From an uncultured Chthonomonadaceae bacterium (lineage in GTDB: Bacteria > Armatimonadota > Chthonomonadetes > Chthonomonadales > Chthonomonadaceae): 64,000 nucleotides of DNA. Location of the stretch: assembly GCA_963835065.1 (NCBI GenBank), contig CAWIEK010000024.1, positions 1-64,000 of the forward strand. Reading direction: 5' to 3'. Position numbers and translations under genes: made by a program. This document shows, piece by piece, positions 3,302-62,609 of the stretch. The notes under the pieces were generated by a model, which was not told where the DNA came from, made no database searches, and was given only the letters and a program-made list of their open reading frames with translations. Each line of letters begins with the position of its first letter. The first letter of the stretch is position 1.

Positions 3302-3427
3302 AGGCATTAGGCATTAGGCATTAGGCATCAGGAATTAGGCATTAGATATAGGGTATTGATCTTCTGTCTTTTCTTCTTCTCTTCTTCTTTTCTTCCCTAA
3401 TGCCTAATGCCTAATGCCTAATGCCTA
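3302..3427. repeat. Inverted heptamer arrays (AGGCATT)n ... (AATGCCT)n between hsdR and hsdM
   Basis: Read directly; pyrimidine-rich spacer between the arms. Confidence 0.95.
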
Positions 3428-8656: not shown

Positions 8657-10639
8657 ATGACAGCCTCAACCAATCACACCGAATCAATCGGCAATCGCCA
8701 ATCGTCAATCGCCAATCGCGCGGGTTTACGCGCCATGCTGCTCGCCCTTCTGCTTGCGCCGATAACCGCGTACTGGTCCGCCGATCAGGTGATGGACGTT
8801 ATTTTTTCCCTGATGATTCCGCCTGTCGTGGTCACGCTGGTTGTCGCCGTCGTGAACCTGATGGTACGACGGATTTCGCCCCGATTGGCGCTGACCGAGG
8901 GCGAACTGATTATTGTGTACGGGATGCATGCCGTGCTGGGCGCGATTTGCGCCGAATGGACGAACGTTATCAACCCGACGATACACAGTTACGCGCTGTA
9001 CGCAAGCAGCGAGTCGCGGTTTCGGGAACTGATTAATCCCCATGCCATCAAGTGGCTGTTCATCCCGGTTGAAAATGCCGCGAAATACGAAGATTACCGT
9101 AACGGCGGGTATCCGTTCGGCTATTTCCTGTCGCATTTGAACTTGTGGTGGACGTACATTCTCTCGTGGACGCTGTTATTTTCGCTCGTTTGTTTCGCCA
9201 TGCTGTGCATCAACAGCCTGATGCGCGACGAATGGACGAACCGCGAAAAGCTCGCGTTCCCCATTATCCAATTGCCGATGGCGATTGTGCAGTCGGGCGC
9301 GGGCAAGTCGCAGGTCTGGAAAAGCAAGTTTTTGTGGATACCGTTTCTCATCATGTTCGGCGTAGACATGCTGAACGGTTTCCACTTCATTTATCCGAGC
9401 CTGCCGCTTATCAATGTGCGCTTTCTGGCCGCGCTCAACGATTTTACGCCTACGGCTCCCCTCAACGCTATCGGGTGGACTCCCATCGGCATTTTTCCCT
9501 ACATGGCCGTGATCGGCTTTTTCATGCCGACTGATTTGCTGTTTTCGTGCATTTTCTTCTTTTTCTTCCGCAAGTTCGAGCAGGTGTTCACGTACTCGCT
9601 GGGGTATACCGAGTCGGCGGGCGTGTTCGGCGGGGGCGGTCTGGTTCCCGCGCCGCCGTACTTTAGCGAGCAGAGTTGGGGCGCGTTTCTGGCCCTGTTC
9701 GTTACGGCGATGTGGGTCGCCCGCAACTATCTGAAAGAAGTGTGGCGGCAGATTTTGCATGGACACCCCAAAGGAGACAGCGGCGTTCCGCACCGCTTTG
9801 CCTTTTTGGGACTGCTTGGCAGCGTGGGCGCGCTGATGGTTTTGTCCGTGTACGTCGGCATCCCGCTGTGGATGACCGCCGCGTCCGTGATTCTGTTTTT
9901 GATGTTCAGCGCCGCCCTGACGCGGATGCGGGCGCAGATCGGCGCTCCCTCGCACGAAATGGCGTTTATGGGGCCGAACCAACTGCTGGTGGATTTCGTC
10001 GGAACGCAGGGCTTGCCCCAGGCGGGCGTCAGCCGCTTGGTCACAACGTTCTTCTTTATGAACCGCATCCACCGGACGCACCCCATGCCGCACCAATTGG
10101 AAGCGATGAAAATGGGCGACACGGGCAAAATGAACCAACGCGCCCTGTTCGTCGCCATCACGGTCGCAACGGTCATTGGCTGCATTTTGGGACATCTGAT
10201 GTACATCTGGAAAGGGTATCACTACGCGGCGGAACGGGGCGGCGGGGAAACGGCGGGCGTGGTGGATACGCTTGTCAACAAGCATCAGCCGTCCAACCCA
10301 ATCGCCATTTTGTTTGTCGTATTGGGCTTTCTTTTCGTGCTGAGTCTGGATTTCATTCGCTTCCGCATCCCCGCTTTTCCCCTGCACCCGGCGGGCTATG
10401 CGCTTGCCATGAACTTCGGACTGGACTACTTCTGGTTCGGGCTGCTGATCGTGTACGTCATCAAGGTGTTCGTGGAGCGCTACTACGGCTTGAAAGGCTA
10501 CACCAAACTGCACGAAGTGGCGCTTGGCATCATGCTGGCCGAGTTCTGCGCCGAAGCGGTCTGGTCGGCCTATTCGATCTGGACGCACACCGCCACCTAC
10601 AGCATCAGCATCAACGGACGCTTAGGCTGGGACCAGTAA
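8657..10639 (+). CDS. DUF6785/DUF6784-type polytopic membrane protein (putative transporter)
   Basis: 660 aa with many TM helices; motifs LMRDEWTNREKLAFPIIQLP and PLHPAGY. Confidence 0.8.
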   Translation: MTASTNHTESIGNRQSSIANRAGLRAMLLALLLAPITAYWSADQVMDVIFSLMIPPVVVTLVVAVVNLMVRRISPRLALTEGELIIVYGMHAVLGAICAEWTNVINPTIHSYALYASSESRFRELINPHAIKWLFIPVENAAKYEDYRNGGYPFGYFLSHLNLWWTYILSWTLLFSLVCFAMLCINSLMRDEWTNREKLAFPIIQLPMAIVQSGAGKSQVWKSKFLWIPFLIMFGVDMLNGFHFIYPSLPLINVRFLAALNDFTPTAPLNAIGWTPIGIFPYMAVIGFFMPTDLLFSCIFFFFFRKFEQVFTYSLGYTESAGVFGGGGLVPAPPYFSEQSWGAFLALFVTAMWVARNYLKEVWRQILHGHPKGDSGVPHRFAFLGLLGSVGALMVLSVYVGIPLWMTAASVILFLMFSAALTRMRAQIGAPSHEMAFMGPNQLLVDFVGTQGLPQAGVSRLVTTFFFMNRIHRTHPMPHQLEAMKMGDTGKMNQRALFVAITVATVIGCILGHLMYIWKGYHYAAERGGGETAGVVDTLVNKHQPSNPIAILFVVLGFLFVLSLDFIRFRIPAFPLHPAGYALAMNFGLDYFWFGLLIVYVIKVFVERYYGLKGYTKLHEVALGIMLAEFCAEAVWSAYSIWTHTATYSISINGRLGWDQ

Positions 10640-13066: not shown

Positions 13067-13123
13067 AGTTGATAGTTGATAGTTCGTAGTTGATAGAGGT
13101 GGAGGAACTATCAACTATCAACT
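13067..13123. repeat. Inverted heptamer arrays (GTTGATA)n ... (TATCAAC)n
   Basis: Read directly. Confidence 0.9.
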
Positions 13124-23915: not shown

Positions 23916-24277
23916 AGGCTTCGCGGAGGTATTCATCCCAATCCATCCGGGTTCCTTCTTGCGGCATTACGGCACAAGAGCTATTCAGTAAACCTCGTCT
24001 ATGGGTACGTTGCCCCACTGTATAAGCCGCAACATGGCTTCACGAAATGCGCTCACAGATACGAGCCAAACACATTAACGAGGCCCGTAATGGTGTCCTC
24101 GTCAATATCTTTGCGGACGCGCTGACGCTCCAGGAGCGCATCTACAATGGCCTCCCAAAAACTCTGGTCATGGGCGTGGCTATCCTCTTCAAAGAGTATC
24201 TTGTGCGGCAGACACGACACCACATCTAAGAGCAATACCGTTCAAATAAGGCACTTTTCACCTCAAAAAGAACATTG

Positions 24278-24344
24278 TAGGGACACAACTTGTTGTGTCC
24301 GCGCTCTCATCTACCGGAAGAGGACACAACAAGTTGTGTCCCTA
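24278..24344. repeat. GTAG-type REP doublet; second doublet at 32735-32840
   Basis: GTAGGGACACAAC-TT-GTTGTGTCC ... GGACACAAC-AA-GTTGTGTCCCTAC. Confidence 0.85.
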
Positions 24345-24630
24345 CCAACGCTTATTTGAACGGTATTGCATCTAAGAGGGCAAGCATCCGCCCCGCCAGC
24401 GGTGTCCCTTCCACGTCGCGCAACACACGGGCAATGGCGCGGGCATGGCGCGCGGTACTTTTCTTGCGGGGCGAGGGAGAGTTGCTCATGGCTTGTGTCT
24501 ACAATACGGTTGCAAAAAAGTCCTGCAACCGCCGCCCAAATAGTTCCGGCAAGCGCCAAAATAGTTCTCACAAGGTCTTGACAAAACTTTCTAGACCTTA
24601 ACTTGTAACTGATGAGGTTAGCAGTTTCCC

Positions 24631-27843: not shown

Positions 27844-27954
27844 AACAGCCGCCTGCCCCACTAAACAGAGTATCGCTGAAAATTCGTAGTTATTGTATGT
27901 CTATCAACTACGAACTATCAACTATCAACTGTTTACAGGAAGCAGGCGGCTGTT
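27844..27954. repeat. Terminator-like outer stem enclosing a TATCAAC heptamer element
   Basis: AACAGCCGCCTGC / GCAGGCGGCTGTT, with inner pairs TAAACAG/CTGTTTA and TTCGTAGTT/AACTACGAA. Confidence 0.75.
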
Positions 27955-32660: not shown

Positions 32661-32858
32661 TAGCAGTACCGGACTTCTCGCTCCTAAGTTTAATAGCATT
32701 CAAATAAGACGGTTGCTGCCTCAAAAACAAGTTCGTAGGGACACAACATGTTGTGTCCTCTTCCTGCGGCGGCATGTCCTCGCATAAAGGAGGGCGCGGA
32801 CACAACCTTGCCCATGCGGACACAACATGTTGTGTCCCTACAAATCGTTACGTGCCGG

Positions 32859-34865: not shown

Positions 34866-34983
34866 CAGGGGTTGAAAACCCCTGTCTGGACAAAGCAAGC
34901 GTCTTTCAGACGCGCCCATGCTTTCTGGAAGTTGCGTCTGCAAGACGCTTGCCTTTTCCTGCCGGGTGTTTTCAACACGCGGA
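34866..34983. repeat. Bipartite REP-like doublet; related copies near 25319, 39597 and 54464
   Basis: GCGTCTGCAAGACGC-TTG-N7-GCCGGG..TTTTCAA..C.CGG present in both orientations. Confidence 0.8.
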
Positions 34984-35738: not shown

Positions 35739-37988
35739 TTACGGCTGCTTCGGTTTGGCGAAGATGGCGTTGTCTACGGGCGCGTTGACGGCCACATCCG
35801 TAAACTTCAGGTCAAGCAGCGTGGCCTTGCCCTGCGACACTTTCAGCGTACCGGGAACCTTCACGCCCTGTGAGGTTTTGTAATTGCCCATCAGCACGGT
35901 CACATCCGCTTTGGAGGTCGGCAGCACCATGCGCGACGCGAGGTTGGTCACAGGGTCAATATACACCCGCACATCCGCGCCCTTGTCCGTCGTGATGATA
36001 TAGCCCGTATCGCCGCTGTCACCGGACTTAGGCAGGGAGCGCACGGCGTAGTTGTTGGCGTAAGCGTCGCGCAGCAATTTGATGGGATTGAGCGCGCTGC
36101 CCAGACCGGCGGGCGGCGTTTGCGTTGCGCCCGCAACGGTCAGCCATTCCTCGCTGTTCCCGCCTGCCGTGCCGAACGAAATGGGAAAGGCCGAGGTCAG
36201 GTCGGCGCGTACCTTGTCGGGAGCCGCCAGCGTAAGCGTCAGGGATTCGATAGGAAGCGCGCCGGGGAATTGCCCTGTCGGATCGGTCAGTTCGCCCGAA
36301 CCTTTCAGCACCATGCTTTTCCAGTTCAGGAAAGCCGCGCCGCCGTGCGCCTTGATGGTAGCCGCCAGCCCCGTTTTCCCGGCTGCCATTTCCGCAGGCG
36401 TACCCTTCGCGCCCGTACCACTTCCCCCTGCACCACTCCCCCCTGTCCCCTGTCCCCTGTCCCCTGTCCCCTCTAACGTGGGCGAAAGCAGGTCTACACT
36501 CGCGGCAGGAATCACGCGCACCGTGCCGATGGCTTCCACGTCCTTGCGGATGGCTTTGGCGTCGCCGACAAGGACGATTTGGGGCGCGTTGAGATGCAGG
36601 CCGCGCATGATTTCGGGAACCTGACTGCCTGTAACCGCCTGAACGCGCTCGGCGTAATGTGTCAGGTCGCCCGGCCCATTGCCGTACAGCACGGCGGGAA
36701 CCAGCCGGGTTAAAACGCCGTTCGGGGTCGCCACGCTGACGGCAAATGAACCCTGCAAGAACGCTTTGCGATCCTGAAGTTCCTCGGCAGGCACTTCACC
36801 CATGCTGATTTTACGCGATTCTTCCAGCGCCAGTTTGACCACTTCGCCCGTCGAGGCGTTTTTGGTAAACGTAAAAATTTCAAACTCGCCCGCGTCCTTG
36901 TTGCGCCTGAAACCACTGCCCACGCCATACGTCAGGCCGCGCTTCACGCGAATTTCGCGGGTCAGGCGGCTGTCGAACTGTCCCAGGCCGAGAACCGCAG
37001 TGGCGACGGTTCCGGCAATGCGGTTCGGGTCGCTGTAACCGTTCGTCAGCGTACCGATACGCACTTCCGTTTGCGCGGCTCCCGGACGGTCCAGAATGGT
37101 AATCTGCGGCTTCGCCGTATCCGAAGGAGCGGTCATTCGCGCAGGCGGCGCGGGCGCGGCGGGAACGTCTTTCTTGTCCCAACTCCCAAACGCGGCCTGC
37201 GCTTTTTCCATTGCCTGCGCGGGCGTAATGTCGCCCACGAGGAACAGCGTGGATTGGTTGGGCGCAAAAAAAGTGTCGTGGAACTTCTGCGCGTCGTCAC
37301 GGGTCAGCGATTGCAGCGTTTGCGGCGTACCCTCGCTGTTGTTGCCATACGGGTGCGCGCCATACACCAGGCGAGACAGGGCCAGTTCCGCGATTGTGGC
37401 GGGCTGCGACAGAGATTGCGTCAATTCATTTATGGTTTGGCTGCGCGTCCTGTCCAATTCTTGTTGGGGGAACGAAGGACGCAGGGTGATGTCGGCAAGC
37501 AGGCTGAACAGGGTATCCGCGTAGGGGCTTAACCCGCTTGCCGAAACAGTCAGGTAATCGTCGTCCACGCCCGCGCCCAATGACGCGCCCAGGCCATCAA
37601 TCGTGTCGGCGATTTCCGTTTCGCTCCGGGTAGCCGTGCCCTTGTTGAGCAGGCGCGCGGTCATGGAAGCCAGCCCCACTTTGTCTTTCGGGTCCCGGAT
37701 GGAACCGGCGGGGATTGCCAGCCGCATCCATACGGCGGGCTGCGTATGGTCTTCCAGCACCACCAGTTTCAGGCCGTTGGGCAATGTCTGCTGCACGATT
37801 TTCGGCAATTGCAGGGCGCGTTCCTTGCCCAGCGGCGGCAATCCCGCCGCGCTTTTGGAAGCCTGCTGCGCGCCTGCGCCCGGCAGGACGGATAAGGAAA
37901 GCGTCAGGATCGCGCCCAAAGCAACCCCATTCAAGCCTGTGCGATTGCGCTGCCGGGGAGTATTGTTTATGTTGCGAAACCGGGTCAT
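35739..37988 (-). CDS. M16 peptidase non-catalytic subunit with an extra C-terminal beta domain
   Basis: LPNGL and SRLTREIRVKRGLTYG motifs, no HxxEH, signal peptide. Confidence 0.88.
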   Translation of the reverse strand: MTRFRNINNTPRQRNRTGLNGVALGAILTLSLSVLPGAGAQQASKSAAGLPPLGKERALQLPKIVQQTLPNGLKLVVLEDHTQPAVWMRLAIPAGSIRDPKDKVGLASMTARLLNKGTATRSETEIADTIDGLGASLGAGVDDDYLTVSASGLSPYADTLFSLLADITLRPSFPQQELDRTRSQTINELTQSLSQPATIAELALSRLVYGAHPYGNNSEGTPQTLQSLTRDDAQKFHDTFFAPNQSTLFLVGDITPAQAMEKAQAAFGSWDKKDVPAAPAPPARMTAPSDTAKPQITILDRPGAAQTEVRIGTLTNGYSDPNRIAGTVATAVLGLGQFDSRLTREIRVKRGLTYGVGSGFRRNKDAGEFEIFTFTKNASTGEVVKLALEESRKISMGEVPAEELQDRKAFLQGSFAVSVATPNGVLTRLVPAVLYGNGPGDLTHYAERVQAVTGSQVPEIMRGLHLNAPQIVLVGDAKAIRKDVEAIGTVRVIPAASVDLLSPTLEGTGDRGQGTGGSGAGGSGTGAKGTPAEMAAGKTGLAATIKAHGGAAFLNWKSMVLKGSGELTDPTGQFPGALPIESLTLTLAAPDKVRADLTSAFPISFGTAGGNSEEWLTVAGATQTPPAGLGSALNPIKLLRDAYANNYAVRSLPKSGDSGDTGYIITTDKGADVRVYIDPVTNLASRMVLPTSKADVTVLMGNYKTSQGVKVPGTLKVSQGKATLLDLKFTDVAVNAPVDNAIFAKPKQP

Positions 37989-39944: not shown

Positions 39945-40043
39945 TTGGTGGTTGGTGGCTGGTGGTTGGTGATTGGTTTACAAGTATACGCTTATCGCAG
40001 GCGTCATCTTAAACCAATCACTAATCACCAGCCGCCAACCACC
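39945..40043. repeat. Inverted heptamer arrays (TGGTGGT-like) ... (ACCANCC-like)
   Basis: Read directly; overlaps the glycosyltransferase stop codon. Confidence 0.75.
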
Positions 40044-41143: not shown

Positions 41144-41239
41144 AGAGATAAGAGATAAGAGATAAGAGATAAGAGGGTAAGAAACGGTATAAGATAGCAG
41201 CTATGAGACGCCTTTTCTCTTATCTCTTATCTCTTATCT
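41144..41239. repeat. Inverted hexamer arrays (AGAGATA-like / TTATCTC-like)
   Basis: Read directly between the two glycosyltransferase genes. Confidence 0.85.
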
Positions 41240-45472: not shown

Positions 45473-46969
45473 TCAACTCTCAACGCTCAATGGAATAATC
45501 GTTTCCGGCTTCCTTTGCCCACGATGAAACACGTTGTACTCGCAGAAGGAAACGGCTTCGCCCTGCGCGTTCAGGATTTTGGTGCAGCACTGTTGGATAC
45601 GCTTGTGGTCGTATGTGTGCGCGTCCATGAACGGTTTTACCACGACGCGAAACACGCGCCTGCCGAACTGTTCCGGCTGCCCGATGAGCGGCAATACATC
45701 CCGCAGGCCGCTGCGCAAAAACAGGGTCGCCAGGTCGCGCAGGGTTTGGCGGGCGCGCAAATGGGCTACGTCCGACCAGACCCGCCGCGCCGCGCCGCCC
45801 AGCATCCCCGCGAAACTGATCCGATCCGCGAACAAATCCAGATAGCGGGCCACGTCCAGATGGCGCGGCAGGGGCGTAATAGTTTCGCGCTTGGCGTCCA
45901 GAAAGCCATACGTCAGGGCGCAGCAATCGGGGTGCGAACAGGGCAGGCCGACAAAATCGCTCGTCAGCAACGCGCCGCCCGTTTGACAATCCAACTCGCG
46001 CAGCACGTCCGTCATGGTCAAGCGCTCATGCGCGGCGAATTCATGTTCGTACCGCCCCGCGCTCATTACGGGCTGAAACGTCAGGCCGTTGATGTTATCG
46101 AGTGACAGGGCGTAGCGGTACAGGTCGCCGATTTCATCGTCATTAACGCCCCGCTCCAATGTCGCCACAAGAGTTACGAACAAGCCCTTTTCCTGCGCCC
46201 GCCGCAAGGCTTTCTGCTTGACGGCAATCAAGTCCCGCCCGTACAAACGCGCCTGCACATCCGCCCGGAAACTGGAAAACGAGAAAAACAACTCCACGCG
46301 CTCACGATGCGCCGCCAGAACTTCCAGCAGTTCGTCGCTTTGCTCCAAACGCAGGCCGTTGGTATTCACCAGGATACGCCCGATGGGATATTCTAACGCC
46401 AAATTGAGCATTTCGGCAAAGTGGGGATGAATGGTCGGCTCACCGCCACTGAGCATTAGCACATCCAGACTGCGCTGTGTCCGAAAAAACGTGTCCAATC
46501 GCTGTCGCGCCGTTTCCACGCTCATAAAATCGTGCCCCCGCGCATCCGCATAGCACGTCGGGCAGCGCAGATTACACGCGAGGGTGATTTCCAGCAGCAG
46601 CACACAGGTGGGAGGAGCGGGAGGAAAGGATGAATCCATTGCCGGTTGCCGATTGCCGACTGCCGATTGGGTTTTTCCTGTTCCCTGTTCCCTGTTCCCT
46701 GTTTCCTCTTCTATTCCCCCGCAGCAGGCGGAGTCGCTGCCGCAGCAGCCGGTGATTGCGCTTGGCAGCCCGACACGCGGCGACACGTACCGGCGGAGGC
46801 GCAGGTACTCGTTGGCGTCTGATGCCAGCAGCGCTTTAGATGCGCCGTGACGCGGACAGGTTCGTTCCATCCACACTCGTTCCGCCTCGACAAACAGCCG
46901 GGCGGGAACCGTCCGCAGGCACGTCGGGCACAATCCGTCCGTCTGCTCGGTCCACTCTGCCATTTCCAT
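45473..46969 (-). CDS. Radical SAM enzyme of the Tes/GDGT-MAS (MJ0619) type
   Basis: N-terminal CPTC...CPRHG, CNLRCPTC, SGGEPTIHP, PCSHPDC, C-terminal CC...SFCEYN. Confidence 0.88.
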   Translation of the reverse strand: MEMAEWTEQTDGLCPTCLRTVPARLFVEAERVWMERTCPRHGASKALLASDANEYLRLRRYVSPRVGLPSAITGCCGSDSACCGGIEEETGNREQGTGKTQSAVGNRQPAMDSSFPPAPPTCVLLLEITLACNLRCPTCYADARGHDFMSVETARQRLDTFFRTQRSLDVLMLSGGEPTIHPHFAEMLNLALEYPIGRILVNTNGLRLEQSDELLEVLAAHRERVELFFSFSSFRADVQARLYGRDLIAVKQKALRRAQEKGLFVTLVATLERGVNDDEIGDLYRYALSLDNINGLTFQPVMSAGRYEHEFAAHERLTMTDVLRELDCQTGGALLTSDFVGLPCSHPDCCALTYGFLDAKRETITPLPRHLDVARYLDLFADRISFAGMLGGAARRVWSDVAHLRARQTLRDLATLFLRSGLRDVLPLIGQPEQFGRRVFRVVVKPFMDAHTYDHKRIQQCCTKILNAQGEAVSFCEYNVFHRGQRKPETIIPLSVES

Positions 46970-47063
46970 ACCGTTTTCTACGCTTTCTTCAAACAGGCAA
47001 TGCAGGCATCAGGCACAAGTTTCAAGCATACCTGTACCGAACACCCTTAGATGTGAGTAACTT

Positions 47064-47214
47064 TTCACCACCAAGACGCCAAGAACACCAAGAGAAAACA
47101 GGCCACAAAAAGACACAGAATCGAAGTTGGTTTCGTTCTCTCCTGCAATTTCACTACGTTGTTCTTCTCGTCCTTCTTGTTCTGCTTGGTGTTCTTAGTG
47201 TCTTGGTGGTGAAA
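47064..47214. repeat. Inverted 9-mer element; second copy at 55479-55610
   Basis: TTCACCACCAAGACGCCAAGAACACCAAG ... CTTGGTGTTCTT(A/G)G(T/C)GTCTTGGTGGTGAA with different interiors. Confidence 0.9.
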
Positions 47215-47228
47215 AGTTAGCGATGTGA

Positions 47229-55915: not shown

Positions 55916-56500
55916 GTGAACAGTTATATACCTATTGCCGTATTGGTGTTGGTGGCGACGGTGATTGCTGCCGCGATGGTAGGCGGCTCCTTCTTTCTCG
56001 GTCCCAAAAAGCCCGGGGCGCAGAAAGAAACGCCCTACGAATGCGGCATGACGCCCGTTGGCTCTGCCCGTGAGCGCTTTCCCATCAAGTTCTACCTGAT
56101 CGCGATGCTGTTCATCGTGTTCGACATCGAAACCATTTTCCTGTATCCCTGGGCCGTCAACTATGGCGCGCTCGCCCACTCCCTGAAAGTGTTTAACCTG
56201 ATTGAAATGGCCGTATTTGTTATCATCTTGTTTGTCGGCTATTTCTACATCATCGGCAAGGGCGCATTGGATTGGGACGAGAGCGAGCAGGCCCGCAACG
56301 CCGACGTGCTGACCGCCCATGTTGTCGCGCCGCGTGGCGCGCTCCGTTATGGCAACGAAGACTCCGGCCCCGCCGACCTGTCCAAAACGCCCATCGGCCC
56401 GCGCGTTCCCACTTATGGCGCAAGTTCGCAGGAACTCTACCAGCGCATGCCCGACCAAAGCGTCCCGGCCCTGCCCCGCGACGTGCCGCGTATTCAGTGA
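55916..56500 (+). CDS. nuoA: NADH-quinone oxidoreductase subunit A with a C-terminal extension
   Basis: PYECG, FYLIAMLFIVFDIE and KGALDW motifs. Confidence 0.95.
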   Translation: MNSYIPIAVLVLVATVIAAAMVGGSFFLGPKKPGAQKETPYECGMTPVGSARERFPIKFYLIAMLFIVFDIETIFLYPWAVNYGALAHSLKVFNLIEMAVFVIILFVGYFYIIGKGALDWDESEQARNADVLTAHVVAPRGALRYGNEDSGPADLSKTPIGPRVPTYGASSQELYQRMPDQSVPALPRDVPRIQ

Positions 56501-56501
56501 A

Positions 56502-56625
56502 GAGTAGTCAGTAGTCAGTAGTCAGTAGTCAGTAGAAAGCCCGCTCTCGTAAGGTTGTACTGACAGGTAAAGCCATAAGTAGACAGGAATTTCTACTGAC
56601 TACTGACTACTGACTACTGACTACT
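56502..56625. repeat. Inverted heptamer arrays (AGTAGTC)n ... (GACTACT)n
   Basis: Read directly between nuoA and nuoC. Confidence 0.95.
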
Positions 56626-56637
56626 TCTGAGGTACTC

Positions 56638-57351
56638 ATGGTTCAATCGCCTCCGCCACCCGCAGTGGAAACCGTTCCTGAGCGGCTGGAAGTGCAAAAA
56701 ATTCGCGCGCTGTTTCCCGACGCCATTCTGGACGTGAACCTGTTTCGCGGTGACACGCGCATTATGGTGCAGCGCCAGCACATCGTGGAAGTCTGCCGCC
56801 TTATGCGCGACGACCCGCAATTGCAATACAACTTCTTTGTGGAATGTCTCGGCGTAGACTATCTGGACTACCGCGACGACTACCGCTTTGAAGTGGTGTA
56901 CAACCTGTACTCGCTGCCCTGGGAAAAAGACGGCAAGCGCTACGGGCACAACACGCGCATTTTTCTGAAAGTGCCCGTGCCCGAAGAAGACGCAATTGTT
57001 CCGAGCGTGACAAGCATCTACCCCGGCGCGAACTTTCCCGAACGCGAAATTTTCGATATGTTCGGCGTCCGCTTTTCCGGGCATCCCGATTTGCGGCGGA
57101 TTTTAATGCCGGACGACTGGATCGGGAATCCACAGCGCAAGGATTACCCGCTCGGCGGCGAGCGCGTCCAATTTCCGGGCGGCAAGTACGGCCCGTCCGT
57201 TGCCGAAGTGCCCGTCCAGCACCCCGGCGAGTCCTTCTACGGCAAAACCGGCGACGAGCAGGGAGAAAAGTACGGTCACGTTCGCACCCCCACGCCGGAC
57301 AAAGGGCCGGGAACGCAGTTGCCGCCGGCGGGAGAACCGGGCAAGAGTTGA
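56638..57351 (+). CDS. nuoC: NADH-quinone oxidoreductase subunit C
   Basis: [24 protein letters not shown]...RKDYPL. Confidence 0.96.
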
Positions 57352-57476
57352 TAGTTGATGGTTGATAGTTGATAGGCAAGCACAGACAATATCTACCTTC
57401 GCCTTTCACCCATTTTACAAGCGGCACAAGCTACGCTGACAGGTCACTATCAACTAAAAACTATCAACTATCAACT
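57346..57476. repeat. Inverted heptamer arrays (GTTGATA)n ... (TATCAAC)n
   Basis: Read directly between nuoC and nuoD. Confidence 0.93.
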
Positions 57477-57494
57477 TTCCCGAAGGGAAAACTC

Positions 57495-58739
57495 ATGGCT
57501 ATTGACGAAAAGCGTCTGAATGAATTAAATACCGAGTCCATGAACGCGCAGGGCATACAGGTTGACGCCCTTGACGACCAGACGATGGTAGTCAACATGG
57601 GGCCGCAGCATCCGAGTACGCACGGCGTTTTGCGCGTGGTTCTGGAACTCGACGGTGAGGTAATCGTCCGCGCCACGCCGCACATCGGGTATGTGCATAC
57701 CGGCATCGAAAAAGAATTGGAGTTCCAGACCTATCTGAAGGCGGTCACGCTGACAGACCGCATTGATTACGTGGCGTCCCTGCTGGAAAACGGCGCGTAC
57801 TCGCTGTCGGTTGAGAAACTGCTGGGCATTGAGATACCGCCGCGCGGGCAGGTATTGCGCGTGATGCTGATGGAACTGGAGCGCCTTGCCAGCCATCTCG
57901 TATGGCTCGGAACCCACATTCTCGATCTGGGAGCCATGACCGTCTTCTTCTACGCCTTCCAGCAGCGCGAAAAAATACTGGACTTGAAAGAGATGATTTC
58001 GGGCGTCCGCATGATGACCAGTTGGATCGTGCCGGGCGGTCTGCGCGGCGATGCCCCGGACGGGTGGCTTGCCCGCGCCAAAGACCTGGTGGACGATTTC
58101 CCCCGCGCAATGGATGAAATCGAAAACCTCTTGAGCGCCAACCCCATTTTCCGGGAGCGGACGCAGGGCGTGGGAACCATCAGCGTGGAAGACTGCCTTG
58201 CGCTTGGCGTGGCCGGCCCGACCCTGCGCGCGGCGGGCGTTCCTTACGACATCCGCAAAACGCAGCCTTACAGCGGCTACGAGCATTTCCGATTTTACGT
58301 GCCGACGGGAGAGTTCAGCGACGTTTACGACCGCTACCGCGTCCGCATGGCCGAAATGATGCAAAGCCGCGAAATCATCAAGCAGTGCATTGAAAACATG
58401 CCCACCGGCCCAATCAACAGCGATGACCGCAAAGTCGTGCCCCCGGCGCGGCAGGAACTCGACAACAGTATGGAAGCCGTCATCCACCACTTCAAGCTGT
58501 GGACGGAAGGCTTTCACCCGCCCGTTGGCGAAGCCTACGTACCCATCGAAAGCGGCAAGGGCGAAGCAGGGTACTACATTGTCAGCGACGGAACCAACCG
58601 CCCCTATCGCTGTCACCGCCGCCCCGCCAGTTTCATGAACTTGCAGGCGCTCTCGAAAATGTCCGAAGGCCGCCTGATCGCCGATGTGGTAGCCATCATC
58701 GGCAGCATTGATATTATTTTGGGTGAAATAGATCGGTAG
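57495..58739 (+). CDS. nuoD: NADH-quinone oxidoreductase subunit D
   Basis: NMGPQHPSTHGVLR; ends GEIDR. Confidence 0.97.
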   Translation: MAIDEKRLNELNTESMNAQGIQVDALDDQTMVVNMGPQHPSTHGVLRVVLELDGEVIVRATPHIGYVHTGIEKELEFQTYLKAVTLTDRIDYVASLLENGAYSLSVEKLLGIEIPPRGQVLRVMLMELERLASHLVWLGTHILDLGAMTVFFYAFQQREKILDLKEMISGVRMMTSWIVPGGLRGDAPDGWLARAKDLVDDFPRAMDEIENLLSANPIFRERTQGVGTISVEDCLALGVAGPTLRAAGVPYDIRKTQPYSGYEHFRFYVPTGEFSDVYDRYRVRMAEMMQSREIIKQCIENMPTGPINSDDRKVVPPARQELDNSMEAVIHHFKLWTEGFHPPVGEAYVPIESGKGEAGYYIVSDGTNRPYRCHRRPASFMNLQALSKMSEGRLIADVVAIIGSIDIILGEIDR

Positions 58740-58850
58740 GCATCAGGCATTAGGCATTAGGCATTAGGAAATGCCAAGTTCCTTTGTGCCAGTACAAGCA
58801 TATCAGCATCCGGGTAGTTCCTAATGCCTAATGCCTAATGCCTGATGCCT
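58737..58850. repeat. Inverted heptamer arrays (AGGCATT)n ... (AATGCCT)n
   Basis: Read directly between nuoD and nuoE; same unit as 3302-3427. Confidence 0.95.
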
Positions 58851-58860
58851 GGAGTGCCTT

Positions 58861-59499
58861 ATGTCTTCGTCTCCTTCCATCTCCGGCGGCGCGCGCGAGC
58901 CGCTGCCCATGCCGGACAAGCAGTACCATTTTTCTCCGCAGGCGATTGCCGAAATGGAAGAAATCGCCAGCCACTACCCGCAGCGCAAAGCCGCCTGCCT
59001 GCCCACGCTGTGGATCGCGCAGCGCGAATACGGTGGGTATCTGACACCCAACGCCATACAGGAAGTGGCGGACCGGCTTGGCCTGTCGTTTCAGGAAGTG
59101 GAAGGCGTCGCCACCTTTTACACGATGTACAACCTGCGCCCCGTGGGGCGGCATCATCTGGAAGTCTGTACCTGCCTGACGTGCGCCGTGTTGGGCGCGT
59201 ATGACGTGGTGCATACCCTGGAGCATGAGTTGGGCATCGGCATCGGGCAGACCACGCCGGATAAAGAGTTCACCCTGTCGGAAGCCGAGTGCCTGGATTT
59301 CTGCGGCGCGGCCACCGTAATGCAGGTCGGAGACAAGTATTTCACGAACCTGACCGCCTACAACGTGATGAACCTGATACAAGAACTGCGCCAAAGTCCC
59401 GACTTCACACCCGCCAAACTCGCCGACAGCGTCGTAAAAGTGCATATCCCCGGCGCAAGCGAAACCGGTGGCGGCAGTTTCAAACCGGAAGACATCTAA
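58861..59499 (+). CDS. nuoE: NADH-quinone oxidoreductase subunit E
   Basis: VATFYTMY; CTCLTC and ECLDFC 2Fe-2S ligands. Confidence 0.93.
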   Translation: MSSSPSISGGAREPLPMPDKQYHFSPQAIAEMEEIASHYPQRKAACLPTLWIAQREYGGYLTPNAIQEVADRLGLSFQEVEGVATFYTMYNLRPVGRHHLEVCTCLTCAVLGAYDVVHTLEHELGIGIGQTTPDKEFTLSEAECLDFCGAATVMQVGDKYFTNLTAYNVMNLIQELRQSPDFTPAKLADSVVKVHIPGASETGGGSFKPEDI

Positions 59500-59526: not shown

Positions 59527-59988
59527 ATGAAGTCTACAGCAGATACTTACCATGATGCAGCGCAAGAACATTTGGTTACGGCTCAGGAGTTACACGAAGC
59601 AGGCAACTACTATCTATCTCACTATATTGCAGGATTAGCGGTAGAGTGCATGTTACGCGCTTTCTTACGCGCCGAAGATAAATTTGACGCGGATCATAAT
59701 CTGGCGCAGCTTGCTGAAAAAGCAAACTTTTATGAGTATATACCAACACATCAGTGGGAGCAATTCGCCGCGAAGTTTACGCAGATGAATGTGCGTTGGC
59801 GCAGCAATCATCGCTTTTTTGCGCAATCTGAGGTGAGGAGGTATCTGCGCTCTGTAGGCGCGGATGCAGGCGCAAAAGGCGACACCTTCAAGAACAATAG
59901 CCGTACCTTGTTAAATCTGGCTATCGAAGTGCTTAATCAGGGAGAAGCATCATGGCAAAAACGCAAGTCAGCTTCACAGAAGAAGTAG
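59527..59988 (+). CDS. HEPN-domain protein
   Basis: AQELHEAG..YLSHYIAGLAVECMLRA...HNL helical HEPN pattern. Confidence 0.7.
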   Translation: MKSTADTYHDAAQEHLVTAQELHEAGNYYLSHYIAGLAVECMLRAFLRAEDKFDADHNLAQLAEKANFYEYIPTHQWEQFAAKFTQMNVRWRSNHRFFAQSEVRRYLRSVGADAGAKGDTFKNNSRTLLNLAIEVLNQGEASWQKRKSASQKK

Positions 59989-60218
59989 AGCGCCTTCTTC
60001 GGGATCATTTTACAAACGCCAATGTTATCATAGGAATTAACCCCGGGGCGGAGCGTGTCAGCGGTCAACTGGTTACTCCTGACTTTATCGGCATGGAACA
60101 CATTGACCGTCAAAAAATGGTGCGTGATGTGTTGCGCAAAACGCTGAAGAAGAAAGCCGAAGGAGTGTCCATTATCCTCGCCTACACGCCGGACGAATAC
60201 GCGGCTATGTCGGCGTAA
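59952..60218 (+). CDS. Small BolA/MNT-like partner of the HEPN protein
   Basis: VTPDFIGMEHIDRQKMV...YTPDEY; overlaps the HEPN gene. Confidence 0.6.
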   Translation: MAKTQVSFTEEVERLLRDHFTNANVIIGINPGAERVSGQLVTPDFIGMEHIDRQKMVRDVLRKTLKKKAEGVSIILAYTPDEYAAMSA

Positions 60219-61639: not shown

Positions 61640-62098
61640 ATGACAGCAACGGTTGCGAAAACGTTCCCTGCGTATCGGAATGTCGTGCAGGAGTTGGTAG
61701 AGGAGCATTTGGAACTCACAGATCAGCCCCTGCTGCTGGCTCTTTATTACGTGCCGGATCGCGACTCGAATGATATTTTCTTGTTCGAGGTGGCTGATAA
61801 GTTCGGCGGTAATCGGGTCACTGAAGAAAATGCATTTATGGAAGTAACGTTCGGAGCCAACTCGGGGTTGCGTATCGGCAAAAAGCAGCGCCTGCATTTG
61901 ATTATTACAAACCCCAATGAGCTCCGCGCAGCTATTCGGAATAAGTGGCCCGATGTTGTGGAAATTGGCAAAGCCGTAGCGCAAGAACGTTACCAACAAC
62001 TCTACGCCGCGTCTGAGGATGGAGAAAACTTGTTAAGGGACCTGCGCTATTACGCTGCGCCGGATAGGGACCTCCGATATGAACCTGCCGTCGGGTAA
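61640..62098 (+). CDS. Hypothetical protein, partner of the downstream HEPN gene
   Basis: Overlaps the next gene; LHLIITNPNEL resembles an MNT C-terminal strand-helix. Confidence 0.6.
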   Translation: MTATVAKTFPAYRNVVQELVEEHLELTDQPLLLALYYVPDRDSNDIFLFEVADKFGGNRVTEENAFMEVTFGANSGLRIGKKQRLHLIITNPNELRAAIRNKWPDVVEIGKAVAQERYQQLYAASEDGENLLRDLRYYAAPDRDLRYEPAVG

Positions 62099-62609
62099 GG
62101 TCTGGCTGCGGCAAGCGCTATCTGACTTGGAATGTGCAAAGCTTCTTGAAACAAATCCAGAACTGCGCTGCCATGCCATTGCAAAATATCAGCAGACAGT
62201 GGAGAAGGGCGTGAAAGCGTTGGCGGTTGCTGTAAGCGACAGTACGACGACGCAGATAACCATTCAGTTCAACCATGATGTCGAATCGTACATCAATGTT
62301 ATGCAGCGTCTGCCACTCAAGCGAAACTCCAACATTCCACAGCGTATTCGCAGCCTGTTCAATGTACAAGACATGAGTATTTTGTACAATCTGATTGCAC
62401 AAGCGCCGCACCGTCCTGCTGCGGGAGAAAGATACGCGCGTAATACCGAATACCCATTTCAGAATACAGAGGATGCATGGGCGGCTCCCTGTGATGCTGG
62501 TGTTTACTCCGAAGAGGAACTGAGAATGTGGGGCCGCTTGACCACAAAAATGATAAATGAGGTGGAAGCATTAGTGGGGGTTTTGTACCGCAGCAAGCGA
62601 AAACGCTGA
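62079..62609 (+). CDS. HEPN-domain protein
   Basis: WLRQALSDLECA...QQTVEKGVKAL...H...EYP. Confidence 0.72.
   Translation: MNLPSGKVWLRQALSDLECAKLLETNPELRCHAIAKYQQTVEKGVKALAVAVSDSTTTQITIQFNHDVESYINVMQRLPLKRNSNIPQRIRSLFNVQDMSILYNLIAQAPHRPAAGERYARNTEYPFQNTEDAWAAPCDAGVYSEEELRMWGRLTTKMINEVEALVGVLYRSKRKR

Follow-up and report, generated by a model that had tools for sequence, protein, structure and literature searches.

Why should three successive gene junctions of one operon each carry a long hairpin, and each a different one? The question arises in the nuo operon of an uncultured Chthonomonadaceae bacterium, within a stretch of 64,000 nucleotides (positions 1 to 64,000 of contig CAWIEK010000024.1, assembly GCA_963835065.1) that we call the window. 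Between nuoA and nuoC, nuoC and nuoD, and nuoD and nuoE, a tandem array of a seven-letter unit is followed by a loop and then by the complementary array, as a sequence-only reading of this DNA had described; all three inverted arrays were confirmed at their positions. The explanation we favour, with about even confidence, is that the nuo hairpins carry no genes and belong to a family of repeat-armed hairpins found throughout the genome, which likely spread and replace one another in place as DNA, and whose transcripts are predicted to be cut by RNase III. The genes, arms and loops are laid out as follows, the arms and loops as read from the sequence.

55916..56500, + strand: nuoA (NCBIfam match below cut-off); its TGA ends 2 nt before the left arm
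56503-56535, + strand: nuoA/C left arm, 4.7 copies of AGTAGTC, G-rich
56536..56592, no strand: nuoA/C loop, 57 nt, member of a dispersed core family, ~60-70% identical to other copies
56593-56625, + strand: nuoA/C right arm, 4.7 copies of GACTACT, 12 nt before the nuoC ATG, with GAGG outside the long stem
56638..57351, + strand: nuoC (NCBIfam match over the family cut-off); its TGA, 57349-51, lies within the next left arm
57346-57375, + strand: nuoC/D left arm, 4.3 copies of GTTGATA
57376..57445, no strand: nuoC/D loop, 70 nt
57446-57476, + strand: nuoC/D right arm, 4.4 copies of TATCAAC, 18 nt before the nuoD ATG
57495..58739, + strand: nuoD (NCBIfam match over the family cut-off); its TAG, 58737-39, opens the next left arm
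58737-58768, + strand: nuoD/E left arm, 4.6 copies of AGGCATT, one of them the variant AGGCATC, mirrored in the right arm
58769..58819, no strand: nuoD/E loop, 51 nt
58820-58850, + strand: nuoD/E right arm, 4.4 copies of AATGCCT, 10 nt before the nuoE ATG
58861..59499, + strand: nuoE (NCBIfam match over the family cut-off)

The predicted RNA folds of the nuoA/C, nuoC/D and nuoD/E elements each consist of one long stem, with energies of -81.2, -50.0 and -75.8 kcal/mol and z scores of -11.4, -6.3 and -9.7; none of 200 shuffles was as stable. The stability resides in the arms, as the loops folded alone were no more stable than shuffles. The idea that the left arm supplies the upstream stop codon stands for the nuoC TGA, the nuoD TAG and the TAG of an hsdR gene elsewhere in the window, and fails for nuoA, whose TGA precedes the arm.

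To place these three elements in context, the source genome (G000; 8.0 Mb, 92% complete) was scanned with array thresholds scaled by period, and genes were called with our own rough hexamer-model caller. Heptamers dominate its tandem arrays (2358, vs 94 hexamer, 330 octamer and 65 nonamer arrays), and the most frequent heptamer unit accounts for 283 of them. Neighbouring heptamer arrays less than 150 nt apart are inverted partners in 441 of 874 cases; shuffling of labels gives 37.5 on average and 51 at most. The resulting 463 close inverted pairs occupy 353 co-directional, 41 convergent and 23 divergent junctions, with 43 inside called open reading frames (ORFs) and 3 at contig edges. Their left arm holds more G than C in 449 pairs and less in none. 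A terminator role was considered and rejected: convergent junctions are not enriched (41 of 417 elements vs 765 of 5783 junctions) and no U run follows any of the three nuo stems, although no dedicated terminator scan was run.

The arms had been proposed to bridge the stop codon and the next ribosome-binding site, and their placement is indeed non-random, with only the first of these two anchors borne out. The left arm starts between -10 and +9 nt from the upstream stop at 246 of the 353 co-directional junctions and overlaps the stop at 149. Among the 102 elements whose junction leaves 60 nt of slack or more, 58 begin within 15 nt of the stop (~13 expected) and only 20 end near a start, and hence the anchor is the stop codon and not the ribosome-binding site. 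The upstream stop is TAG for 193 of 353 elements vs 1519 of 5854 genes overall, an enrichment that persists when the stop lies just outside the array (76/156). Once the element is removed, the stop-to-start gap has a median of 20 nt.

Comparison with two further genomes of the same genus, G001 and G002, shows that the sites are kept and the units exchanged. The comparison with G002, which drew on 1.6 of its 7.5 Mb, gave 296 orthologous co-directional junctions, of which 56 were set aside as too long and 240 scored. A repeat hairpin is present in both genomes at 38 of these, in the source genome only at 25, in G002 only at 7 and in neither at 170 (odds ratio 37, p 2e-20). Only two of the 38 shared sites have an identical unit; orthologous units are still closer to each other than permuted ones (edit distance 2.63 vs 3.16, p 5e-5), and the pairings of units between the two genomes recur (p 0.005 on raw units). 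Orthologous loops are mostly unalignable, with 4 of 31 above the 95th percentile in the same orientation and 2 of 31 in the opposite one. The nuo junctions behave likewise. Of 26 other genomes, 5 have a repeat hairpin at nuoD/E, in every case built of another unit (a script identified those of G001, G011, G013 and G015, inspection by eye that of G002), and at nuoA/C and nuoC/D a hairpin is found in one of 24 and one of 26 other genomes, respectively, in both cases G002 (at nuoC/D with an AGGTTTC unit and a gap of 94). In the other relatives, the nuoA/C and nuoC/D junctions are mostly short or overlapping. The proposal that architecture rather than sequence is conserved is therefore upheld. A metagenome contig of ~95% identity to the window (one run, contigs only) has the nuoC/D element replaced by 95 other letters, so replacement can be abrupt; the nuoD/E arms are kept in contigs of that same run. 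Joints across loops in the metagenome contigs come from other copies or organisms.

Whole elements have been copied between unrelated loci in either orientation, while occupied sites persist between species and their unit and loop change. The copying is seen in the spacers, which had been described as unique; the nuoA/C loop is not, as it belongs to a dispersed core family. Sixty-four loops between AGTAGTC arms at unrelated loci align as one diverged core of ~57 nt, and 73% of loop pairs in this family score above the 95th percentile of shuffles. There is little such signal in the AGGCATT and AGTTGAT families (8% and 15%); relatives of the nuoD/E loop are weaker, and the nuoC/D loop scores barely above shuffles. 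All 69 matches to the core profile at E<1 have repeat arms, some of them made of AAGACAG, ACGGTAG, AGGCATT or AGGGAGT units. Relative to transcription the core is oriented 26:30, and at nuoA/C it runs in the reverse of the family's medoid copy. The profile gave no match in 0.4 Mb of G001 and one weak match (E 0.05) in 1.6 Mb of G002. One near-identical pair of elements lies inverted 3.9 kb apart, with unrelated flanks and a single loop base different, and there are small subfamilies besides. Most identical pairs among 393 elements sit in segmental duplications. Such duplicated segments, of 8-14 kb and 98-99% identity, link the source-genome contigs C26/C62, C27/C29, C25/C37 and C43/C69, and may reflect either real duplication or mixing of strains in the assembly.

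The arms record a second process. A variant in one arm is mirrored in the other 122 times, against ~5 expected, and among co-directional elements the mirrored patterns number 47, of which 29 are singletons. Fine selection for RNA pairing was not borne out: mismatches on the mRNA strand show no preference for G·U (91, vs 129 A·C), nor do they in G002 (27 vs 28). No target-site duplication was detected across the 353 elements (longest direct repeat in the flanks 3.90 vs 3.96 permuted), and the loops are not hypermutable in duplicated segments (3.0% vs 4.0% at third codon positions, some segments being counted twice). Arm length is uniform, near 4.5 units. The mirrored variants, together with the lack of G·U bias, target-site duplication and hypermutation, point to copying and arm correction at the DNA level rather than to fine selection on RNA pairing.

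Related arrays also reside inside protein-coding genes, where they remain in frame. Called ORFs contain 322 of the 1678 array clusters, spread over 277 genes, and arrays on the coding strand have stop-free units in 616 of 652 cases. In 23 alignments to G001 or G002 orthologues they are mostly variable in-frame loops, often refilled with other modules. The order of modules is nearly fixed (340 of 349 pair observations), with the purine-rich module first. Two such arrays of the window are listed below, and a further in-frame mosaic is seen at window positions 8685-8719.

36440..36472, - strand: stop-free in-frame heptamer array in the gene of an M16-family peptidase; the G002 orthologue has a shorter one
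46638..46711, - strand: stop-free mosaic of a GGGAACA module followed by an AATCGGC module in the called ORF of a radical SAM gene

Structural RNAs carry the same elements. Both 23S rRNA genes of the source genome are ~3220 nt long (one at G000:C49 338082-341304, L174), and at Rfam position 1218 each holds a hairpin insert without an ORF, armed with AGTAGTC, the unit found at nuoA/C. Going by the ~1.2-kb fragment of Coxiella and E. coli numbering, we take this site to be helix 45. It is filled by other units in G001 and G002 and carries no insert in G005, G013 and G035, two eukaryote-like matches in G013 being ignored. These two large-subunit rRNA matches (L185 and L187, G013:C2) look eukaryotic, and their contig may be a contaminant. 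Further 23S inserts are a GGGAACA hairpin near 1840, where G001 (L182/L184) has a non-heptamer insert of the same length, and a degenerate hairpin near 300. In RNase P RNA, helix P12 is filled by a hairpin of AGGCATT, the nuoD/E unit; G001 and G035 have other units there, G005 and G013 no repeat array, and the G035 unit is the one that surrounds one of that genome's own four-helix-bundle genes. In Coxiella, RNase III excises a helix-45 intervening sequence (IVS) with a 28-bp stem, as excerpts of PMC4990558 describe. An RNase III gene is present in the source genome, and from their length and this precedent the 30-37-bp stems are predicted to be cut as well.

The sequence-only reading suggested that the hairpins may be empty forms of mobile cassettes. 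Cargo-bearing forms do exist. The source genome has three four-helix-bundle genes of TIGR02436 and three GxxExxY genes, and all six have repeat arms, one pair being only partly complementary; the TIGR02436 gene on contig C8 is enclosed by AGTAGTC, the nuoA/C unit, in the same order of stop, arm, arm and ribosome-binding site. By eye, arms are seen at most of the best 18 four-helix-bundle loci, 17 of them from relatives. The other half of the suggestion found no support, as at no junction did a filled form in one genome have an empty counterpart with the same arms in another. At two four-helix-bundle cassette sites with an orthologous junction in the source genome, that junction differs in arm type or holds a toxin-antitoxin pair. 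The latter, a MazF-like pair, stands beside a single AGGCATT arm (L165 2938-3580, G000:C24) where G002 has the four-helix-bundle cassette. Another locus (L166 2567-3032, G000:C24) has AGGCATT arms around 411 nt with internal palindromes and no clear ORF, between convergent genes. Eleven ORFs tested from pairs with long spacers proved to be ordinary genes, a HEPN gene or without a Pfam match, and no autonomous transposon with the same ends was found among long-spacer pairs of up to 1.5 kb in this 92% complete genome.

These observations can be joined into a working model. The element consists of a G-rich array of ~30 nt, a loop and the complementary array, and is found at stop codons, within variable helices of RNAs and, in versions free of stops, in loops of proteins. 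The ~30-bp arms likely serve as recombination handles for ectopic gene conversion. With inverted arms, a donor could enter in either orientation, and it could carry nothing but an empty loop, or else a nested module or a cargo gene. The arms likely stay periodic and mirrored through slippage and arm-to-arm templating. New sites would arise rarely, probably aided by the GxxExxY nuclease cassette or by microhomology at stop codons. At a gene junction, the hairpin would cost little because stop and ribosome-binding site stay outside it, ~20 nt apart. Cutting by RNase III would incidentally split the polycistronic mRNA, an effect that the host could partly exploit. The nuo elements are likely tolerated, IVS-like dispersed elements that are kept where a long hairpin does no harm. 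A bolder version, which we consider rather unlikely, is a write-and-replace system in which four-helix-bundle and GxxExxY cassettes seed landing pads at stops and RNA helix tips, each lineage overwrites hundreds of them from its own ordered module vocabulary, and RNase III cuts the loops out.

Several observations weigh against copying and swapping of tolerated elements. No mobilising enzyme was identified for them, no filled and empty alleles share arms, and recent copies are rare, with one pair of at least 90% identity and unrelated flanks among the 393 elements. Not every copy may be cut, because cleavage of a P12 stem by RNase III would break up an essential RNA, and the site comparison is a sample of G002. 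The strong retention of sites between species also fits selection by the host, as do the higher conservation of genes flanking elements (84.3% vs 80.7% identity, p 0.002) and a cluster in a ribosomal-protein region, with 10 elements in 20 kb vs 1.2 expected. Host use is thus a serious rival. It would make the hairpins RNA punctuation, by which operons such as nuo and those for ribosomal proteins set their subunit ratios through cleavage by RNase III, protection of 3' ends or coupling of translation while the unit drifts. The preference for conserved genes and co-directional junctions and the short effective stop-to-start gap agree with it, and stabilisation or coupling has been proposed for the heptamer hairpin between hupS and hupL (PMC2670836, in the sections available). 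We nevertheless judge it unlikely: the mRNA strand shows no G·U preference in either genome, loop orientation is random, most relatives have no hairpin at these nuo junctions, an element begins at the stop with or without a following ribosome-binding site, and related arrays occupy protein loops and rRNA tips, where mRNA punctuation makes no sense.

The remaining origins fit worse than copying and swapping of tolerated hairpins. Non-autonomous transposons would be repetitive extragenic palindromic (REP) doublets forming hairpins (REPINs) or miniature transposable elements with inverted repeats (MITEs), their arms recognised in trans by an HUH transposase, either a REP-associated tyrosine transposase (RAYT) or of the IS200 type, or by a DDE transposase. 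The inverted doublet with conserved arms and variable spacer resembles REPINs as portrayed in the consulted part of PMC3116915, loops lie in either orientation and the source genome has four Y1 transposase matches. Its arms, on the other side, are tandem repeats instead of short palindromes, no target-site duplication is seen, no core match lies at a transposase end, and independent random insertion would not yield the same sites in two species, which makes this origin improbable. A RAYT/REP link was rejected, since none of the four Y1 loci has heptamer arms and two carry palindromes of their own. A very unlikely alternative is a local origin, with polymerase slippage making the array and template switching the mirror arm, and nothing moving between loci. 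Private mirrored variants (the 29 singleton patterns) and orthologous units only a few edits apart would suit it, and slippage of the polymerase has been named as the cause of an excess of heptamers (as cited in the accessible text of PMC4692102). The small genome-wide vocabulary, the copying of whole elements and the nearly fixed module order all speak against it, and the cores shared at unrelated loci already largely refute it. Writing by a reverse transcriptase (RT), with arrays copied from an RNA template as by a retron or telomerase and integrated as cDNA, appears the least probable of all. It would explain the uniform arm length and the ordered vocabulary, and a type XIII retron operon does contain two AGTAGTC elements, one of them immediately upstream of its RT. 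That junction is overlapping in four of the seven genomes with this RT, and the three members of the genus carry three unrelated hairpins with different units, on which grounds the retron was rejected; nor are the loops hypermutable, and the other RT is a CRISPR RT beside Cas1. Directly upstream of the type XIII RT (G000:C50) a non-coding RNA would not fit, and the conserved non-coding RNA that marks a retron msr-msd is absent there. The operon itself (L162 8482-14854, G000:C50) is retron-like, comprising RT_XIII, a SWIM_XIII gene with a BRCT domain and a WGR/HEAT-like gene, with hairpins at two junctions. Elsewhere, at L161 7208-11452 (G000:C49), genes for Cas6, Cas2, a reverse transcriptase and Cas1 adjoin a ribosomal-protein operon.

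The same design had been said to recur at seven other places in the window. Five of these, beginning near 3302, 39945, 41144, 47064 and 55479, are real; the hairpin at 13067 has only a very short loop, and the one near 27884 has a degenerate arm.

3302..3427, - strand: AGGCATT hairpin at the hsdR/hsdM junction, with the hsdR TAG in the arm and a purine-rich second module nested in the loop
13067..13123, - strand: AGTTGAT hairpin directly after a stop codon, loop ~10 nt
27862..27935, no strand: degenerate AGTTGAT-family hairpin with one good and one degenerate arm (77% complementary)
39945..40043, - strand: GGTGGTT hairpin after a glycosyltransferase gene, followed by a ribosome-binding site
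41144..41239, - strand: AGATAAG hairpin between two glycosyltransferase genes
47058..47219, - strand: hairpin with 8/9-mer arms, one arm type also bordering a GxxExxY gene on contig C19
55479..55610, - strand: 8/9-mer hairpin immediately upstream of queC

The nuo operon has other peculiarities. Within window positions 55916-57351, nuoC directly follows nuoA with no nuoB between them, an order shared by the relatives examined. Pairs of HEPN-like and small genes interrupt the operon in the nuoE-nuoF gap (59527-60218) and after nuoF (61640-62609); they have no repeat arms, and a Pfam HEPN match was obtained for 59527-59988 only. In the relatives shown, nuoE and nuoF are mostly adjacent. The window also contains REP-like palindrome families without heptamers, at 34871-34976, 32732-32844, 24277-24345 and 1045-1123, and others were seen at loci L163 and L164.

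These hairpins bear on two open questions, the over-representation of heptamers in bacteria and the origin of rRNA IVSs. Identical units join contexts that are otherwise separate: the nuoA/C unit also surrounds a four-helix-bundle gene and arms the 23S insert, and RNase P RNA shares its unit with nuoD/E. If the write-and-replace version were true, there would be intervening sequences in mRNA, and rRNA IVSs, the short, tandemly arranged repetitive sequences (STRRs) of cyanobacteria and in-frame repeat loops would be one mobile system. With sites kept and units swapped among three genomes of one genus, origin can be tested by strain comparison and function by RNA end mapping. In practice, short-read assemblies break at the elements, hundreds of proteins gain spurious low-complexity loops, and 23S rRNA may be fragmented.

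How do these elements compare with known systems? The in-frame arrays recall the palindromic elements of Rickettsia, repeat DNA that is translated in frame inside conserved proteins; they differ in that heptamer modules make up a mosaic whose order is nearly fixed. Heptamer arrays in intergenic positions close to gene ends are found in Xanthomonas and Nostoc, with 70-75 inverted pairs in Xanthomonas, mostly between the same genes in two species (PMC4692102, in part), and in Beggiatoaceae as direct TAACTGA repeats (PMC4679880, in part). One unit dominates in those systems, in contrast to dozens in the source genome, and the accessible portions of both papers do not connect arms with a core, a cargo gene or an rRNA insert. 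REPINs share the inverted doublet, the conserved arms, the variable spacer, compensatory changes and an extragenic location, according to the available part of PMC3116915. The source genome differs in that its arms are non-palindromic tandem arrays, that no RAYT is flanked by them and that its sites are shared between species; the target-site duplication of MITEs is likewise absent. The parts are known separately, as STRR hairpins, heptamer pairs, REPINs and rRNA IVSs. We found no publication that unites them, nor a paper linking heptamer arms to four-helix-bundle or GxxExxY genes or reporting these repeats in Armatimonadota, in a search that mostly left out subscription journals and took in no supplements.

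The closest parallels are with STRRs and IVSs. Like STRRs, the elements are built of tandem 7-nt units, are mostly intergenic, number many per genome, and form hairpins between operon genes and in RNase P RNA. STRRs reportedly occur in the RNase P RNA of cyanobacteria as well, in work by Vioque from 1997. A heptamer hairpin lies between the co-transcribed hupS and hupL of cyanobacteria (PMC2670836), and a Nostoc repeat contains the same unit as the nuoA/C right arm (PMC2408588), both as given in the portions of these sources available to us. The present host is not a cyanobacterium, the closest relatives of its NuoE being Chthonomonadales and Chthonomonadaceae records. Its elements further differ in the core shared between arms, the cargo genes, the in-place swapping of units and the ordered in-frame mosaics in 277 called genes. 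With 23S rRNA IVSs they share terminal inverted repeats with a ~30-bp stem, an insert at the ~1.2-kb site of both 23S genes and an RNase III gene in the same genome. The helix-45 IVS of Coxiella burnetii carries an S23p four-helix ORF (PMC4990558, in the excerpted text), and the arms of the nuoA/C unit enclose a TIGR02436 four-helix-bundle gene elsewhere in the source genome. Like an IVS, the rRNA copy is a helix-tip insert absent from relatives (G005, G013 and G035). The differences are that the arms are tandem heptamers, that hundreds of copies lie outside rRNA, that the rRNA copy has no ORF and that extra inserts occur near 300 and 1840. An ORF is borne only by the three TIGR02436 cassettes, in contrast to the nuo and rRNA copies (loops of 51-70 nt). 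Because they lie between protein genes, the nuo copies are IVS-like and not IVSs; by the features tested they are not REPINs or MITEs either, and they appear to work like gene-less IVS or STRR hairpins.

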